Made by a program: the position numbers and the translations under genes. A stretch of 14,167 nucleotides of DNA from positions 1 to 14,167 of the forward strand of contig CAVUXE010000103.1 of the NCBI GenBank assembly GCA_963745235.1, given 5' to 3'. Of this stretch, positions 5,885 through 12,870 are shown piece after piece (within the stretch, counting starts at the first letter, position 1; every line of letters starts with the position of its first letter). The DNA is from an uncultured Spirochaetota bacterium (GTDB taxonomy: Bacteria > Spirochaetota > Spirochaetia > SZUA-6 > Fen-1364). The notes below the pieces were generated by a model. The model was given only the letters and a program-made list of their open reading frames with translations, ran no database searches and was not told the origin of the DNA.

Positions 5885-7003
5885 ATGAAAACCAAGCCGC
5901 TTCACCCCAGCGTTCGGGCCATCCAGAGGTCCCGCTCAATCGGCAAGACCCACAGGCCCATGACCACCGTGGGAATCGCGGCCTACCACAACCGCATGGA
6001 CTTGCACCTGGAAGCGGACAGGTTCCTGGAGGCCCACACCTACAAGTTTGGCGAGCGCGGGGAGGATCCGGTCATCGCGCGGGGCATCCTTTCACCAGAG
6101 AACGCACCCGAATACTTGAAAGACGTCGACCCCAGCGACAAGAAGCTGTACCGGGAAGTGACCGGGCGGCTTTGGAACGACGCCGAGCACGCGGGAGGGA
6201 AGTCCAACGCCATCACGGGGCGCGAGTGGATGCTGCCCATCCCCTGCGAGCTGGGCAGAGAGGAGGCGGAGCACCTGGTGCGAAGCTTCCTCAAGGACTA
6301 CCTGGTGGAGAAGGGCATGGTGGCGCAGTACGTGATCCACGAGCCAAACGAAAAGAACGACTCGCGAAATCTTCACGCTCACGTTCTAACGACTGACCGA
6401 GACATCACTACTGAAGGATTCGCAAAGAAAAAGACAGCAAGCCTCGAGTGGCACAACCGCGACCTGGTCAGGGAAGCGCATCCCGCGTGGGAGAAGGCAT
6501 GCAACAACGCCTTGCAGCTTGCCGGACACAAAGACATCCATATCGACAACAGGCGAAACGCAGTGCAGCTCGGGGAAGCCCTCGAGCGCGGGGACCTGGC
6601 AAGAGCGCGCGAGCTAAACCATGTCCCTGGGGTGCACAAGGGCAGGGCGATCAAGGAGATGGAAGCCAGGGGGATCGAGAGCTTCAAGATGAAGGATCGC
6701 CAGGCGCTTGCAGCGGGACGGTGGGAGCAGGAAGTGGGAGCGATGGCGAGCGGAGTTTCCAAGATCATGGAGCAGCATCGAGGGATCCAAGAGACACTGG
6801 ATAAGCAGATAGAGATGACCAAGTCCAAGGGGGTAGAGCATGAGCTTGGAAGAGGAATTGAGGCGGGAAGAGGATCGCACGAGCGTGGAGAGGATCAGGG
6901 GCGCGCTCAGGGAGGAGCTCGAGGAGCAGCTAAGGGGCATGGAATCAAGGATCAAGAGCGAGATGGCGGAAAGGATCGCGACGGTCCAGAGATCGGGTTC
7001 TAG
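5885..7003 (+). CDS. mobA: MobA/MobL-family (MOBQ) relaxase
   Basis: Motif I AAY, LWN.AE, REWMLPIPCEL, HUH region IHEP...RNLHAHVLTTDR, WEKACNNAL...IDNR, H.G; AAGGAG RBS. Confidence 0.9.
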   Translation: MKTKPLHPSVRAIQRSRSIGKTHRPMTTVGIAAYHNRMDLHLEADRFLEAHTYKFGERGEDPVIARGILSPENAPEYLKDVDPSDKKLYREVTGRLWNDAEHAGGKSNAITGREWMLPIPCELGREEAEHLVRSFLKDYLVEKGMVAQYVIHEPNEKNDSRNLHAHVLTTDRDITTEGFAKKKTASLEWHNRDLVREAHPAWEKACNNALQLAGHKDIHIDNRRNAVQLGEALERGDLARARELNHVPGVHKGRAIKEMEARGIESFKMKDRQALAAGRWEQEVGAMASGVSKIMEQHRGIQETLDKQIEMTKSKGVEHELGRGIEAGRGSHERGEDQGRAQGGARGAAKGHGIKDQERDGGKDRDGPEIGF

Positions 7004-7337: not shown

Positions 7338-7444
7338 ACCCTTGAGGAAGAGAACGCGAAATGAAAAGCCACGTATCCAGCTTCGGCGTGGGGGGAGTGT
7401 TGCCACTCAGGATGTCGACTCCGATAATGTTAGTCAGGAGTTTA

Positions 7445-8128
7445 ATGGGGAAGGATTACGATGCAACAGGCCTGATTTACTTCAACGCTCGCTATTATGA
7501 CCCCACCACCGGCCGCTTCCTCACCGAGGACCCCTCCCGGAAGGGGGTCAACTGGTACGCGTACTGCGGGAATAACCCCATTAACAAGGTGGACAGGACG
7601 GGCCGGCAAGAGGAAAGCTTGGCAGATGTAAACTGGAGACCCGGTGCAGATATCGCGCGTGATCCCAGCTTTCCGACCGGTCCCTCAAATGCACCAGAGA
7701 TAAACCTCCCAAGCGGCTCTCGATACCATCCCGAACAGGACCAGGGTGAAGGCAGCTGGGGAGTATGGGCAAGTGTGCCTCAGCAGGCATACTGGGATAT
7801 CAAGGGCCAGCCCAATCCGCTCGTCGAGAGGTTGTACCCGAAGGAGCCAACATTTTCGCGGAACTACGACCCTTGGGGGGATTTGGGACGCTCGATTTCG
7901 AAGCTGGCGACGAATGCTTGGGCCCTGGTGTCCAGTCTGTTCAACAGACCTGATGCGAGTGGCCCCACCCCGTCGCGATCACCGGGTCCAAGCGTACCGG
8001 CCTCGAACGTGTCGCCTGAAAATCGGCAAGGAGGTCCGGGCAACAACGCCCCCTCCGGCGCAGCAGTCGCCAGAGAACTGGTACCACTAGGGCTGCAACA
8101 ACCTCAATCGAAGGTGATCAGAAGGTGA
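7445..8128 (+). CDS. Orphan RHS repeat-associated core tip with uncharacterised C-terminal extension
   Basis: GKDYDATGLIYFNARYYDPTTGRFLTEDP...NWYAYCGNNPINKVDRTG is the RHS core signature ending in PxxxxDxxG; AGGAG RBS before ATG 7445; no RHS repeats upstream. Confidence 0.8.
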   Translation: MGKDYDATGLIYFNARYYDPTTGRFLTEDPSRKGVNWYAYCGNNPINKVDRTGRQEESLADVNWRPGADIARDPSFPTGPSNAPEINLPSGSRYHPEQDQGEGSWGVWASVPQQAYWDIKGQPNPLVERLYPKEPTFSRNYDPWGDLGRSISKLATNAWALVSSLFNRPDASGPTPSRSPGPSVPASNVSPENRQGGPGNNAPSGAAVARELVPLGLQQPQSKVIRR

Positions 8129-9006
8129 GTGTCCGCGCGCTAATCCTGCTTCCCACGATCTTTCTTGTGGTGGCTTGCACGTCGCGAGAGGCCACAGCCT
8201 ATCTCCGGCACGCCAACGACTTAGCCAACAAAGGTGACTACGAGCAGGCGATCCTCGACTACAACAAGGCCATCGAACTGAGTCCAAGGATGTCGGGAGC
8301 ATACACGGGCCGCGGCCTCGCCTGGTACTACAAAGGTGACCTCGACAAGGCCGCCGCGGACTACAGTCGCGCCATTGAGATCAATCCAAAGAGTGGTGCC
8401 GCCTACCACGACCGGGCGATAGTTCTCGACACAGAAGGCGACTCAAGAAAAGCGATCGAGGACTACAACAGAGCCATCGAGTTCGAACCTAGAAATGCGA
8501 GCACATATGTTGACCGCGCAACCGCTTGGCGGCACCTCGGAGAGACCGAGAAGGCTATGGTTGACTGCAACAGGGCCATTGAATTGGACTCAAACTTTGC
8601 CGACGCCTATTTCATTCGTGGACTCCTTTGGATCTCCGAAGACAATAACCGGAAGGCGATTGAGGACTTGGACAAAGCGATCTCGCTTAACCCCGGAGAT
8701 GCGGATGCGCATACAGCGCGAGGCGCCGCGTGGCAACGCGCAGGAGACCTTGACAAGGCTATCGCCGACTACACCAAGGCAATCGAACTCGACCCGAGTC
8801 ACGCTTCTGTGGCTTTTTACGACCGTGGTCTGGTGTGGGAAAGCAAAGGCGACCAACACAATGCACTTGCCGACTTCGACAAGGCAATTGAGTTGAATCC
8901 CCGATACGTTCAGGCATACGTTAGCCGGGCCGATATTTGGAAGAAACTTGGCAACTCAGAAAAGGCAGGAGCCGATAGAGCCAAAGCCGCGGAGCTCGCG
9001 CACTAG
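8125..9006 (+). CDS. Tetratricopeptide-repeat lipoprotein
   Basis: Signal peptide with lipobox-like VVAC; about 8 TPRs (AY..RG.A....GD..KAI.DY.KAIEL.P); GTG start overlaps the RHS stop (GTGA). Confidence 0.9.
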   Translation: MSVRALILLPTIFLVVACTSREATAYLRHANDLANKGDYEQAILDYNKAIELSPRMSGAYTGRGLAWYYKGDLDKAAADYSRAIEINPKSGAAYHDRAIVLDTEGDSRKAIEDYNRAIEFEPRNASTYVDRATAWRHLGETEKAMVDCNRAIELDSNFADAYFIRGLLWISEDNNRKAIEDLDKAISLNPGDADAHTARGAAWQRAGDLDKAIADYTKAIELDPSHASVAFYDRGLVWESKGDQHNALADFDKAIELNPRYVQAYVSRADIWKKLGNSEKAGADRAKAAELAH

Positions 9007-9076
9007 ACGAACGCGCTCAGAGCGGTTTCGGTCGTTCCTGACGCTGTTCTGTGTACCGGATGACGCTACGGGCTAC

Positions 9077-9651
9077 CCTCGCCCCCCCGCCGCTCCCCCT
9101 CCCTGGAACCCACCCCCTCGGCTTCCCCCCTGTTAAGGTACCCTTGGTCGTCCAGGGAGGGGGACGCTCATGGGGGGGCTCGGCTTCCTACCGCTCCTCG
9201 CCGCGCTCGGCATCCCTGCCTCGCTGGGAGCTCGTCGCTTCGGAAGGCCCTGCGCTATGGTGGTGACGGTTGGGTGCGGCAGCGTCCAGCATGCCGAGAG
9301 GGCCGACCGTAGGCGGTTTGCTGATCGTGACCGACGCGGCGTTCGTCGGCGGGCAACGGCTGGAGCTGGCCGAGCGCGTCGCTGACCGCTGGAATCGACC
9401 CCGCGCCGAAGGCACCGTCGCGATCGGCAGCCGCCGCACGCAGATGCGGCCGCCCCTGACGGTGCGAGACAGAGCGGAGGGCTTTCTGTAGCGCTGGAGC
9501 GAGGCGCCAAGGACGGCGCCGAGTGGAGGCGCGTACAGAAACCGCGGCCCCCCTAAGAGTCTCCCCCTCCCAGACGACCAGAGGGTTCCATATCCGGGGG
9601 GTGTGCAGAGCGGGTGGGACGGGGAGGGCGGAGACGGCAGGGGGGTGAGGG
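9077..9651. repeat. Long imperfect inverted repeat (~575-nt fold-back)
   Basis: Arms pair in near-constant register (coordinate sums 18725-18730): 9077/9651 CCCTC..GAGGG, 9145-9152 TGGTCGTC with 9573-9580 GACGACCA, 9247-9256 with 9473-9482, 9302-9309 with 9421-9428. Confidence 0.8.
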
Positions 9652-9664
9652 AAGGCCGACGCGC

Positions 9665-9705
9665 AAGACGGCCCGCGCGGAGCCCTTCCGGGCGGGGTCT
9701 TTTTT
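9665..9705 (+). terminator. Intrinsic terminator
   Basis: AAGAC..CCCGC.CGGA-gccct-TCCG.GCGGG-GTCTT stem running into a T6 tract. Confidence 0.65.
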
Positions 9706-9950
9706 CCGAATAAGATTGTATTATTTCGACACGTTGAAACGGGGGATGAGCCGAAGGGAAGGCGGCGTACCCGCCCTTAATCAGCCGTCGAACACGCCGC
9801 CGACGCGAATCTCCAAAAATCCTACGCTCGCCCTGGCCCGTGGTGCCATCAGCAAGAGGGCTCGCCGTGTCATTCTACCCAGGAGAAGAGCGCCGTTACC
9901 GACAAGTTGATATTGTTCGTAAAAGCCCGAAGATCGCCGGGGCAAGAGAG

Positions 9951-10131: not shown

Positions 10132-10335
10132 TCATGCTTCGTCGTGCTCAGGGATGTCAGTAAGGTCCTCAAGCCCTTCCTCGTCATCGATCACGCCATC
10201 TATCATGCTGCAAAAGCCCGCCGCTCCATCCCTCACGTTATGCAACACGGCGATCTCGGTGTCGTTGGAATCCACCAGATCAACCACCGATGATAGAATG
10301 TTGCGAACGATTCTTAACAGGTCCTGTTCCTTCAT
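10132..10335 (-). CDS. Small acidic hypothetical protein (67 aa)
   Basis: AAGGGGGGTG RBS-like sequence before ATG 10335; MKEQDLLRIVRNILSSVVDLVD... amphipathic helices with D/E-rich tail. Confidence 0.55.
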   Translation of the reverse strand: MKEQDLLRIVRNILSSVVDLVDSNDTEIAVLHNVRDGAAGFCSMIDGVIDDEEGLEDLTDIPEHDEA

Positions 10336-10360
10336 TACACCCCCCTTCGTGTTTCCGTCC

Positions 10361-10591
10361 CTATGGGGCAAGTCCTTGCTCGATCATTCTCTCCGCCCAA
10401 AGTCGGGCACCAGTTTTCGCTGCCTCCTTCGTTGGATAGACACTCGGCTCTCCCCGCAGTTGGAGGTGCTTTGTTTTTTGGTGACTGGGTTCGTCGGGCA
10501 AGAAGGTCCCGCCGCTGAACGTCCACCCGTTGCCGTCGAGTGTCTGTAGCACGTCAATTTCAACGAGGATGCCTCGGATTTTGAACTCCAT
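10361..10591 (-). CDS. Small hypothetical protein (76 aa)
   Basis: MEFKIRGILVEIDVLQ...W.F...YPTKEAAKTGARLWAERMIE: beta strands plus C-terminal helix, plausible as a real small protein; co-oriented with the next ORF. Confidence 0.5.
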   Translation of the reverse strand: MEFKIRGILVEIDVLQTLDGNGWTFSGGTFLPDEPSHQKTKHLQLRGEPSVYPTKEAAKTGARLWAERMIEQGLAP

Positions 10592-10761
10592 GTTGGACCG
10601 ATAGTGAGCCCTTCGCGAGCCGTGGCGCAAGGGTGCCCGGGCGGTCTGTTGTGTTTTCGAGCGATGACCGTAGTAAGCTTCTGACTAAGCTTTCATCATG
10701 GGATTGTCGCCCCCGGTTCAACCTCCTTTCCGGGGGCGATTTCTTAGGCTCCAAAGAGAGA

Positions 10762-10871
10762 GGCACGGAGGCATGGCTGTACCCCATGAAGGTTTTTCCA
10801 TGCTGACGATCTCCCGCGCTGATCAACGTAACCAACTCCAGCGCTGACTTACCGCCACCGGACTCCGTGCC
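10762..10871. ncRNA. Structured motif of unknown family, copy 2
   Basis: Same closing stem, inner stem and conserved blocks as 9951-10068, with different loop sequences and lengths. Confidence 0.5.
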
Positions 10872-11091
10872 TGATAAGGTCCATCAGAAGATCGGTCTCC
10901 AACAGAACGCCCGGCAAGCGAGGTCAGAAGCCCCTTGTGAGAGTTCTTTAAGTCTCGGGGTACACCGTAAATGTCATTTCGCTTCACGGGATTCTTGAGG
11001 CGGGAGTTCTCGCGTTTATCGCCGATGTCAGAGCTGCTATGCTACGCCGACTTGGTATATAACAGGTAGAGTATGCACCGGGGGGTGTCGT

Positions 11092-12030: not shown

Positions 12031-12870
12031 ATGGCTACCACGCCCGCCAGGCGGCCCGACCTTGCTTCAGCTTTGTTGGAGGTCAAGGCTCGCGGAGAAC
12101 TCACCACTCAGGCCTACCGGCACGCGCTGGAAGCGTTTCTGGAAAGCGGCCAAGCGGTGACCGTGGAAGGTTTCGCCCAGTACATCCACGAACTGCGCCG
12201 GACTCGGGCCGCGAGCACCGTCAACCAGGCCCTGGCCGCCGGCAGAAAAGCTTTCCTCCAGGCCGCCGAGCGCCTGGGCATGCCCGCGAAAGAGATCTCT
12301 CTCATCCGCGGAGCCCTGGCCGACATCCCCTCAGTGAAGAAAGGACCGCCGGAGGTCGCGGTGGTCTCACCCGCTGAGCGTTCGACGCTCCTTGCCGCGC
12401 TGCCCCTACGAATGCGCCTGGTTGCCGAGACGCTCTACGTCACCGGCGCCCGCGTCTCGGAGGTCCTGGGGGTGAGGCGCGACCAGATAAAGGTGAACGG
12501 CGCCAACGGCACCGTGGAGCTCAGGCTCTACGGCAAGGGCGGCAAGGAACGCACTGCGCGGATTCCCGCGGAGCTTTACAAACGGATCCTCGAGGTCTAC
12601 CCCAGGGGGACGTACTTGTTTGAGAGTAGCCACAAGAAGCACTTCAGGCGGGAGTATGTATCGAGGGAGATCGCACGGGCGGCCAGGCGGGTCCTGGGAA
12701 GGAGAATCTCGGCGCACGTGCTTCGCCACTCGCGGGCGACAGATCTGCTGGCGAACACGCATCGCATAAAGGCGGTCTCAAGGCTCCTTGGGCATAGCGA
12801 CGAAGCGACAACGCTACGGTATTATGTGCACGACGCCTTTAGCGACGAGGAGCTCTTTGGGGGGAGGTGA
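12031..12870 (+). CDS. Tyrosine recombinase (Xer/phage integrase family)
   Basis: Catalytic residues R (TGARVSE), K (GKGGKER), HxxR (HVLRHS), LGH and Y (TLRYYVH); 279 aa with no arm-binding domain. Confidence 0.93.
   Translation: MATTPARRPDLASALLEVKARGELTTQAYRHALEAFLESGQAVTVEGFAQYIHELRRTRAASTVNQALAAGRKAFLQAAERLGMPAKEISLIRGALADIPSVKKGPPEVAVVSPAERSTLLAALPLRMRLVAETLYVTGARVSEVLGVRRDQIKVNGANGTVELRLYGKGGKERTARIPAELYKRILEVYPRGTYLFESSHKKHFRREYVSREIARAARRVLGRRISAHVLRHSRATDLLANTHRIKAVSRLLGHSDEATTLRYYVHDAFSDEELFGGR

Follow-up and report, generated by a model that had tools for sequence, protein, structure and literature searches.

The fold-back at positions 9058 to 9671 of the stretch of DNA analysed here (the window: 14,167 nucleotides (nt) of contig CAVUXE010000103.1, assembly GCA_963745235.1, from an uncultured Spirochaetota bacterium) consists, judging by its relatives elsewhere, of two members of one repeat family placed head to head with nothing between them. 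Such repeats are called arms below. We regard it as reasonably probable that the fold-back belongs to a cassette system whose ends are structured inverted repeats, and that it is an empty, cargo-less copy, similar in kind to a miniature inverted-repeat transposable element (MITE). Its total length is ca. 614 nt, the ends having been set by comparison with family members, and it is composed as follows:

9058..9320, minus strand: left arm, a family member whose outer end is near 9058; core match to the family at 9059-9265
9321..9368, no strand: junction or apex between the arms, the least conserved stretch, holding a hairpin at 9331-9350
9369..9671, plus strand: right arm, a 'B type' family member with its outer end at about 9671
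9682..9705, plus strand: intrinsic-terminator-like hairpin (9682-9698) with a T-run, just outside the right arm, found by a terminator scan and also the final hairpin of the plus-strand fold

The block was folded as RNA on both strands and compared with dinucleotide shuffles (20 for the plus strand). The region 9060-9710 gave -407.2 kcal/mol on the plus strand (shuffles: mean -336.1, standard deviation 6.9; z -10.4, 0 of 20 as good) and -383.7 kcal/mol on the minus strand (z -9.7), with a long imperfect rod as the predicted fold on either strand. An earlier note, made from the sequence alone, had described an imperfect fold-back between 9077 and 9651; it is real and beyond chance on both strands, and its ends lie slightly further out. 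Folding of the region with DNA parameters is also strong (-194.8 kcal/mol on the plus and -187.5 kcal/mol on the minus strand). The rod is the thermodynamic optimum of the whole block, at -385.6 kcal/mol as compared to ca. -299 kcal/mol for left arm, core and right arm folded apart. In the alignment of the two window arms (9069-9259 with 9470-9658), 145 of 202 columns are identical (72%), and the small CCGACG/CGTCGG hairpin that the note had placed in the apex is present at 9331-9350.

Protein coding was rejected for the arms because copies of the family are separated by indels of 1-2 nt. A homologous fold-back from a metagenome differs from that of the window by indels of 1, 2 and 4 nt, with the apex as the least conserved part (lowest identity in the pairwise alignment, indels of 1 and 4 nt), in agreement with the non-coding character proposed earlier. 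The apex 9321-9368 has no other match in the own genome or in the fetched loci. The plus-strand terminator announced for the region beyond the right arm was also found, and the scan count is unremarkable since one plus-strand site in the block compares with a shuffle mean of 1.4. This terminator probably belongs to the upstream plus-strand operon, with the fold-back inserted ahead of it. No canonical terminators were found within the arms, and the duplex sequence of the window block contains no sigma-70-like hexamer pair; a promoter scan of the cassette on contig C100 (see below) likewise gave none. An Rfam search of the whole window, which the note had recommended, gave no family at gathering scores, and the 6 weak matches obtained in 8900-9900 with permissive settings all lie far below gathering (best E 0.62).

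The arm family and its conserved fold

In the following, G000 is the own genome (104 contigs, 5.85 Mb, 86% complete), C103 is the window contig, further G and C labels denote other genomes and contigs, and L numbers denote fetched loci. An nhmmer profile built from six copies (213 model positions) gave seven matches in the own genome, six of them full-length on four contigs and one partial. These are the two window arms, an inverted pair on C100 (2197-2410, minus strand, and 5940-6158, plus strand), single arms on C30 and C15, and the partial copy on C81. The left window arm is matched from 9265 to 9059 (model positions 10-212 of 213, E 5.5e-39) and the right arm at 9463-9668 (model positions 5-212, E 3.4e-48). 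Inward of these matches the arms belong to two different subtypes. The inner extension of the left arm, which runs to about 9312-9320, is of an 'A type' common to the copies on C100 and C15 and in G007, G013 and G015, whereas the extension of the right arm (9369-9462, ca. 95 nt) bears small local hairpins.

The right half of the fold-back (9369-9663) is 91% identical over 295 nt to a sequence on G001:C127 and 84% to one on G000:C30, and the left arm shares 84% identity with one on G002:C59 over 197 nt. Since each arm is nearer to copies elsewhere (84-91%) than to its partner (72%), the comparison indicates that the window arms are not a local inverted duplication, and the decayed duplication that had been set up as the null model is refuted.

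When a single arm was searched as DNA against 61 related genomes, the own genome among them, 18 gave matches at E<=0.001, including 10 in which a copy reaches 180 nt or more. The matches occur in 15 of 24 genomes of the same family and in two of seven genomes of one other family of the order; the remaining six families sampled gave none. Copies per genome are few, at most seven. A two-motif pattern searched against the genomes of 185,579 species returned 13 loci, of which 12 were confirmed by the profile, and all 12 are titled as metagenome-assembled genomes of uncultured Spirochaetota, Spirochaetia or Spirochaetaceae. The thirteenth, titled Cyanobacteriota, has no nhmmer match and was rejected as a chance match. 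In JGI metagenome contigs the same pattern gave 84 stretches, and all 80 that were fetched were confirmed. More than 100 family copies were seen in the fetched loci as a whole. The pattern had no matches in IMG/VR viral contigs, and a search of the 72,556 plasmids of PLSDB in distant mode gave no match to the fold-back. Sequencing runs containing parts of the window are labelled as soil, peat, sediment and wetland metagenomes. Among the best four runs, whose contigs were compared with the fold-back, the contigs from DNA runs break within it and none spans it.

For the structure of the arm, 68 distinct sequences were aligned, selected from 143 full-length profile matches (duplicates from overlapping loci included) by dropping those that share more than 80% of their 12-mers. 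The RNAalifold consensus has a Y shape, with a closing stem of 5-7 bp (GGGCU paired with AGCCC), a hairpin P2 and a long hairpin P3. In P3, runs of C are paired with runs of G and the tip is almost invariant, while the sequence of the P2 stem varies between copies and its pairing is kept. In the right window arm the closing stem corresponds to ca. 9479-9483 with 9653-9657, P2 to ca. 9484-9543 and P3, with its C-run and G-run, to ca. 9547-9647. The left arm has an inner hairpin of its own, with all 14 pairs complementary between 9094-9107 and 9151-9164. The outer end of the family is conserved for ca. 8-10 nt past AGCGTC and then diverges. The TAAGGT of the sequence at 9131-9139, which the note had pointed out in a mismatched stretch, turned out to be family-wide and not local; each arm has it in its long hairpin, in the apical portion that is conserved best.

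Pairing in the alignment is supported by compensatory changes. Over the 53 consensus pairs of the 68 arms, 95.0% of 3523 cells are paired, versus 89.7% in shuffles. Pairs changed on both sides number 18 of 53 (shuffles 10.8 +/- 1.7; 0 of 500 reach 18), and cells changed on both sides number 181, as compared to 55 in shuffles and 23-52 when partners are slid by 1-3 columns. In P2, four consecutive pairs swap between G-C and U-A types, in 12-30 sequences each. Because the sequences are related, the shuffle control overstates significance; the slid controls, in which relatedness is retained, agree with it. These patterns show that the single-strand pairing of each arm is under selection, and that the selected unit is the self-folding arm of ca. 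210-300 nt and not the rod of ca. 575 nt. The long-range pairing of the rod is a by-product, since two family members lie head to head. The earlier proposal of a large structured RNA or single-stranded DNA (ssDNA) thus stands as to selection on single-strand structure and falls as to the unit, the two window arms being only 72% complementary and members of different subfamilies.

Both G-U and A-C cells occur, as the earlier note had seen for the fold-back. Read from the inner to the outer end, the 68 arms have 114 G-U and 50 A-C cells, and each window arm folds better in that direction (right arm: -108.3 on the plus versus -87.7 kcal/mol on the minus strand; left arm: -107.5 on the minus versus -99.6 kcal/mol on the plus strand). 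The G-U excess and the better folds hint at which strand is folded without settling it.

Cargo and exchange at the arms

All pairs of arms lying within a few kb of each other are inverted with their inner ends facing, as in the window. The partners of these other pairs are 80-94% alike over 156-310 columns, and in related uncultured Spirochaetota genomes and metagenome contigs they enclose 2-7 kb of cargo:

G000:C100: a PDC-S14 protein with DUF4357, an unknown protein and an Mrr-like protein
G007:C12: RadC, a type III methylase and restriction enzyme and a nested IS630, with a second IS630 copy outside the pair
G013:C18: a type IIG/ISP enzyme, encoded in two open reading frames (ORFs)
G023:C1: caspase-like, CARF-like and TIR-like proteins
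Ga0315274_10027232 and Ga0315289_10028688: a 206-amino-acid unknown protein and an FRP-like protein
Ga0315280_10064636: a 481-amino-acid unknown protein

Recognisable defence genes are thus present in four of the six distinct cassettes. Of the four pairs from the own genome and its relatives, three belong to contigs that are 342 kb to 3.2 Mb long and the fourth to a contig of 9 kb; the contigs with metagenome pairs measure 3-17 kb. PADLOC matched 28 of 43 inner-side proteins at E<=1e-5, in a set that was hand-picked and in which many proteins had already been suggested as defence proteins by Pfam. The systems seen overall are restriction-modification of types II, IIG, III and IV, CBASS (cyclic-oligonucleotide-based anti-phage signalling), Thoeris-like genes, short Argonaute and caspase/CARF. 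Many of the genes on the inner side match no family.

A locus in G015:C11 (L048, 3065-6390) encodes a short prokaryotic Argonaute (PADLOC pAgo_I, E 4e-200) and a TIR-APAZ partner on the inner side of an arm, and its predicted 601-amino-acid TIR ORF overlaps the arm itself.

Comparison of loci indicates that the arms are boundaries where cargo and flanks get reshuffled. The pairs L122/L123 and L138/L139 have a 2.45-kb arm-cargo-arm unit in common that is 99% identical, with unrelated flanks, and on both sides the identity ends a few bases past the conserved outer motif. Conversely, L139, L167, L152 and L130 have an outer flank and arm in common at 94-98% identity; L139 and L167 diverge inward of the arm, at its inner edge, while L130 and L152 hold too little inner DNA for this comparison. 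Among flanks of the L139 type the cargo differs, being either the pair of 206-amino-acid and FRP-like proteins or a short-Argonaute-associated protein. The L138 flank is also joined to a mini hairpin of ca. 135 nt in L145, which has one P3 and two outer ends, and to a CBASS cassette in L125.

A second cargo-less fold-back occurs in L149, the homolog used above for the coding test. It is 82.4% identical to window positions 9110-9663 over 557 nt, covering left arm, core and right arm, and lies next to a different flank. Its P2 is of another subtype and still pairs. Its outer flank encodes ParA and, at a distance of 78 nt from the arm, an Xre-type helix-turn-helix (HTH) protein. Homologs of these genes flank cargo-bearing arms, for example in L133 (CBASS with NucC), and the HTH protein shares 46% identity with that encoded beyond the C100 cassette. 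Taken together, these alignments indicate that empty, mini and loaded forms have common ends. The arms are also mosaic, in that P2 is swapped between otherwise similar arms.

In two arms a break falls exactly between P2 and P3; the halves are 5.9 kb apart in L047 (G010:C7; 1230-1308 and 7244-7355) and 162 nt apart in L141 (235-354 and 517-608). The intervening 5.9 kb in G010 carry pdxR-like, pdxS, pdxT and SIR2-fragment genes, and solitary half-arms were seen in G012, G014 and several metagenome loci. Insertions may be favoured at the P2/P3 junction, or the arm may consist of two modules.

At no fewer than 10 distinct loci, the outer end of the arm is 22-80 nt from the end of an Xre-type HTH gene (ca. 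190-220 amino acids), an NYN-domain gene, or both, and in every case these genes read towards the arm; examples are L011 (6176-7531), L149 (617-1273), L147, L161, L166, L093, L104, L164 and L125. These genes may be a conserved backbone or candidate partners of the arms.

Readings of the fold-back

In the cassette reading, which we favour, the arms would be cis-acting sites that serve an activity, recombination or transposition, provided in trans. Arms may also exchange by homologous recombination, as their mosaic composition suggests. The window copy would be what remains, or waits, when no cargo is present between the ends, and this empty form would have lodged on a plasmid-like contig, in the untranslated sequence that separates the 3' end of a TPR gene from its terminator. 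If so, a lineage of uncultured spirochaetes of soil, peat and sediment trades anti-phage systems as small cassettes, and long structured repeat ends would add a new defence vehicle to integrons, dif modules and the hotspots of prophages and conjugative elements. The arm model would then offer a simple sequence handle for finding new defence genes. A smaller practical point is that the 600-nt hairpin of the window would be an empty copy of the cassette framework and not a giant RNA gene.

A bolder version of the same proposal, which we put forward tentatively, is that the arms bound a transposase-less cassette of a kind not described before, often with defence genes, whose ca. 250-nt Y-shaped, hairpin-forming terminal repeats are read as folded single strands, as is the case for viral inverted terminal repeats and attC sites. 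The enzyme would be encoded elsewhere in the host or carrier element, and the empty fold-back, carried by a mobilisable plasmid, would serve as a landing pad for cassettes passing between chromosome and plasmid. The Xre-type HTH and NYN-domain genes at the outer ends are candidates for the enzyme.

Several observations weigh against the cassette reading. No excision or insertion event was observed, movement being deduced from comparison alone, and no joint indicating excision was present among the contigs of the best four sequencing runs. A 3-kb stretch around the window locus, compared with 61 relatives in search of an empty site, gave only arm matches and unrelated repeated genes and no flank-to-flank match; for the C15 arm the only match was on the inner side, at a contig start in G019. 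No target-site duplication is present at the two resolved junction pairs or at five pairs inspected by eye. Ordinary homologous recombination between related mobile-element backbones, via the arms, may explain much of the shuffling. The compensatory changes are not proof of a role at the DNA level, as a role in RNA explains selection on pairing equally well.

A mobilising enzyme is also missing from the picture, as no transposase or recombinase is common to the cassettes or consistently adjoins them. No parent element, with matching ends and a transposase, was found in the cargo of the six distinct pairs or among the inner-side ORFs of the fetched loci (59 analysed by Pfam; all 83 by PADLOC, with defence models only). 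Three candidates were rejected. A 490-amino-acid transposase-like inner ORF in L110 has no relatives at other arms. The tyrosine recombinase encoded in the window has a paralogue 4 kb from the C30 arm and none within 2 kb of 80 metagenome arms. The Y1 transposases of the own genome (four PF01797 matches) are on C28, C57 and C75, whereas the arms are on C100, C103, C30, C15 and C81.

The enrichment in defence genes is modest too. In an unselected PADLOC test (ORFs of at least 90 amino acids within ca. 2 kb, E<=1e-15), counting by ORF gave 17 of 83 on the inner and 10 of 114 on the outer side (Fisher p 0.02), and counting by locus gave 12 of 49 and 9 of 57 (p 0.33). The interiors are only moderately richer in known defence genes, and the whole neighbourhood resembles a defence island.

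The strongest competitor is a role in RNA, with the arm as a structured module of the 3' (or 5') untranslated region that stabilises, terminates or insulates the transcripts of the cassette and those converging on it, the inversion serving both directions. In the window the whole fold-back would then be part of the 3' untranslated region of the TPR operon, ahead of its terminator. The compensatory changes reflect selection on single-strand pairing, and the G-U excess and the better folds of both window arms in the inner-to-outer reading speak for this role as well. Outside genes end 22-84 nt from the outer arm end in the window, at C100 and in two RHS-immunity operons of G023. Contigs from two metatranscriptome runs, belonging to two studies, cover 9472-9663 or parts of it; these are not proof of transcription, because DNA carry-over is possible and strand and ends are not visible. 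The missing Rfam match, canonical terminator and promoter-like site argue against this role, which alone would leave the inverted copies and the homology breaks at the arm edges unexplained. We consider it rather unlikely as the explanation of the fold-back, while RNA and DNA roles of the arms may coexist.

It is less probable still that the fold-back is a relic, either a decayed inverted duplication or a cargo-deleted cassette, with no present role. The complementarity of only 72%, the poorly conserved apex and the low copy number would fit such decay. Against it stand the exclusion of a local duplication by the closer copies elsewhere and the purifying selection on pairing across the family. 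A pure relic is unlikely given the conserved second copy, L149, in which both arms and their folds are preserved at 82% identity although the context differs. The view that the element is selfish and has no function for the host is not a rival of the cassette reading and is compatible with it.

The earlier suggestion of a priming site or promoter of the sso (single-strand origin) or Frpo type, used after conjugative transfer, here taken as the rod or one arm serving the MobA/MobL relaxase system, is very improbable: the contig does carry relaxase, ParA and replication-like HTH_36 genes, the fold is strong with DNA parameters as well and arms in both orientations would offer a folded site on whichever strand is transferred, but direct support is lacking, the rod is not the conserved unit, the more than 100 copies often form inverted pairs that bracket cargo and in genomes lie mostly on large contigs (three of the four pairs from the own genome and its relatives), no relaxase is present in the stretches of ca. 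4 to 12 kb annotated around arms, no -35/-10 pair was found on the duplex sequence and searches of PLSDB and IMG/VR did not find the family.

Relation to known systems and context in the window

Similar to MITEs (PMC10969869), the elements are short, non-coding, bounded by inverted repeats, able to form a hairpin and present at several unrelated sites, with cargo-bearing and cargo-less forms that have common ends; in our data the unrelated sites comprise four own contigs and 80 of 80 metagenome loci, and the whole fold-back occurs in two contexts. The composite units described in the same report, in which two MITE copies surround a gene, can be compared with the arm-cargo-arm form. Unlike the terminal repeats of MITEs, which span tens of bases, the arm repeats measure 210-300 nt and have a Y fold of their own. 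Their cargo often consists of defence genes, and neither a target-site duplication nor a parent insertion sequence with matching ends was seen.

The dif modules of Acinetobacter plasmids (PMC13141974, PMC6449649) are likewise discrete modules that lack their own recombinase, have paired sites, are shuffled between replicons and occur on small plasmids. They differ in that the dif-like sites are 28-bp XerC/XerD sites, while the arms are ten times longer, structured and found in a spirochaete host; dif cargo consists mostly of resistance and toxin-antitoxin genes. No XerC/XerD site was recognised in the arms, and by eye no AT-rich 11-6-11 palindrome was evident in their consensus. The two sites of a dif module are, like paired arms, inverted to each other, and no duplication is known to arise.

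In REPIN/RAYT systems (PMC3337134) the hairpin unit also arises from two inverted repeat copies, single copies also occur and the repeats are non-autonomous. Unlike RAYT genes, the four Y1 genes of the own genome are not beside arms; REPINs are moreover devoid of cargo, and the copy number of arms is low. REP units are ca. ten times shorter than arms and have far more copies per genome, and RAYT genes are flanked by their own REPs.

Integron cassettes with attC sites, including defence cassettes (bioRxiv 10.1101/2024.07.02.601719), are similarly promoter-poor, often carry defence genes and end in imperfect palindromes in which the single-strand fold is conserved and the sequence is not. In contrast, the arms form inverted pairs around one cassette, are 2-4 times longer than attC sites and have no integron integrase beside them. 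No attC core motif is present in the arm consensus. Sites of the attC type have one orientation and stand in arrays next to an integrase and attI. All arm pairs seen are inverted, and the window recombinase scores 73 bits with the integron integrase model, for which the cut-off is 265.

By analogy, the element would work most like a MITE or foldback derivative of a cargo-carrying element with terminal inverted repeats, with a logic resembling that of dif modules and integron cassettes. A full-text literature search gave no description of such elements in its listings and abstracts, so a prior description is possible.

The 14.2-kb host contig is plasmid-like, with genes for ParA, Mrr, a replication-like HTH_36 protein, a MobA/MobL relaxase, an RHS-core fragment, a GNAT protein and a tyrosine recombinase; its ends show no terminal overlap. 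The fold-back occupies the gap between the stop of the TPR gene (9006) and the terminator at 9682-9705. The genes referred to above are:

7361-8128, plus strand: RHS-associated-core protein of 255 amino acids (NCBIfam TIGR03696, 68 bits, cut-off 32.5)
8125-9006, plus strand: TPR protein of 293 amino acids (Pfam TPR families), its stop 52 nt ahead of the left arm
12031-12870, plus strand: Xer-like tyrosine recombinase of 279 amino acids, from a multi-copy family

In G023, two further arms are located 27 and 84 nt downstream of full RHS toxin genes followed by a small ORF (L066, 4252-8376; L067, 45-4102), and arms may often adjoin RHS toxin-immunity modules.

The tyrosine recombinase of the window has 16 matches in its own genome at E<=1e-20, five of them 79-99% identical. 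Paralogues are encoded on C87, C38, C17, C82, C81, C70, C30 and C11 of G000, and close relatives are present in 17 of 24 genomes of the same family; the recombinase family may mark small plasmids or integrative elements. Contig C28 of G000 carries two Y1 (IS200/IS605-type) transposase genes, inverted and 2 kb apart (21348-21707, plus strand, and 23709-24068, minus strand). Downstream of the fold-back, the stretches 10134-10344 and 10652-10898 of the window have copies of 77-80% identity on G000:C8 and in G003, G006 and G015. The repeats within 10134-10898 correspond to another repeated gene family with no known function (ORFs 10154-10549 and 10560-10835).

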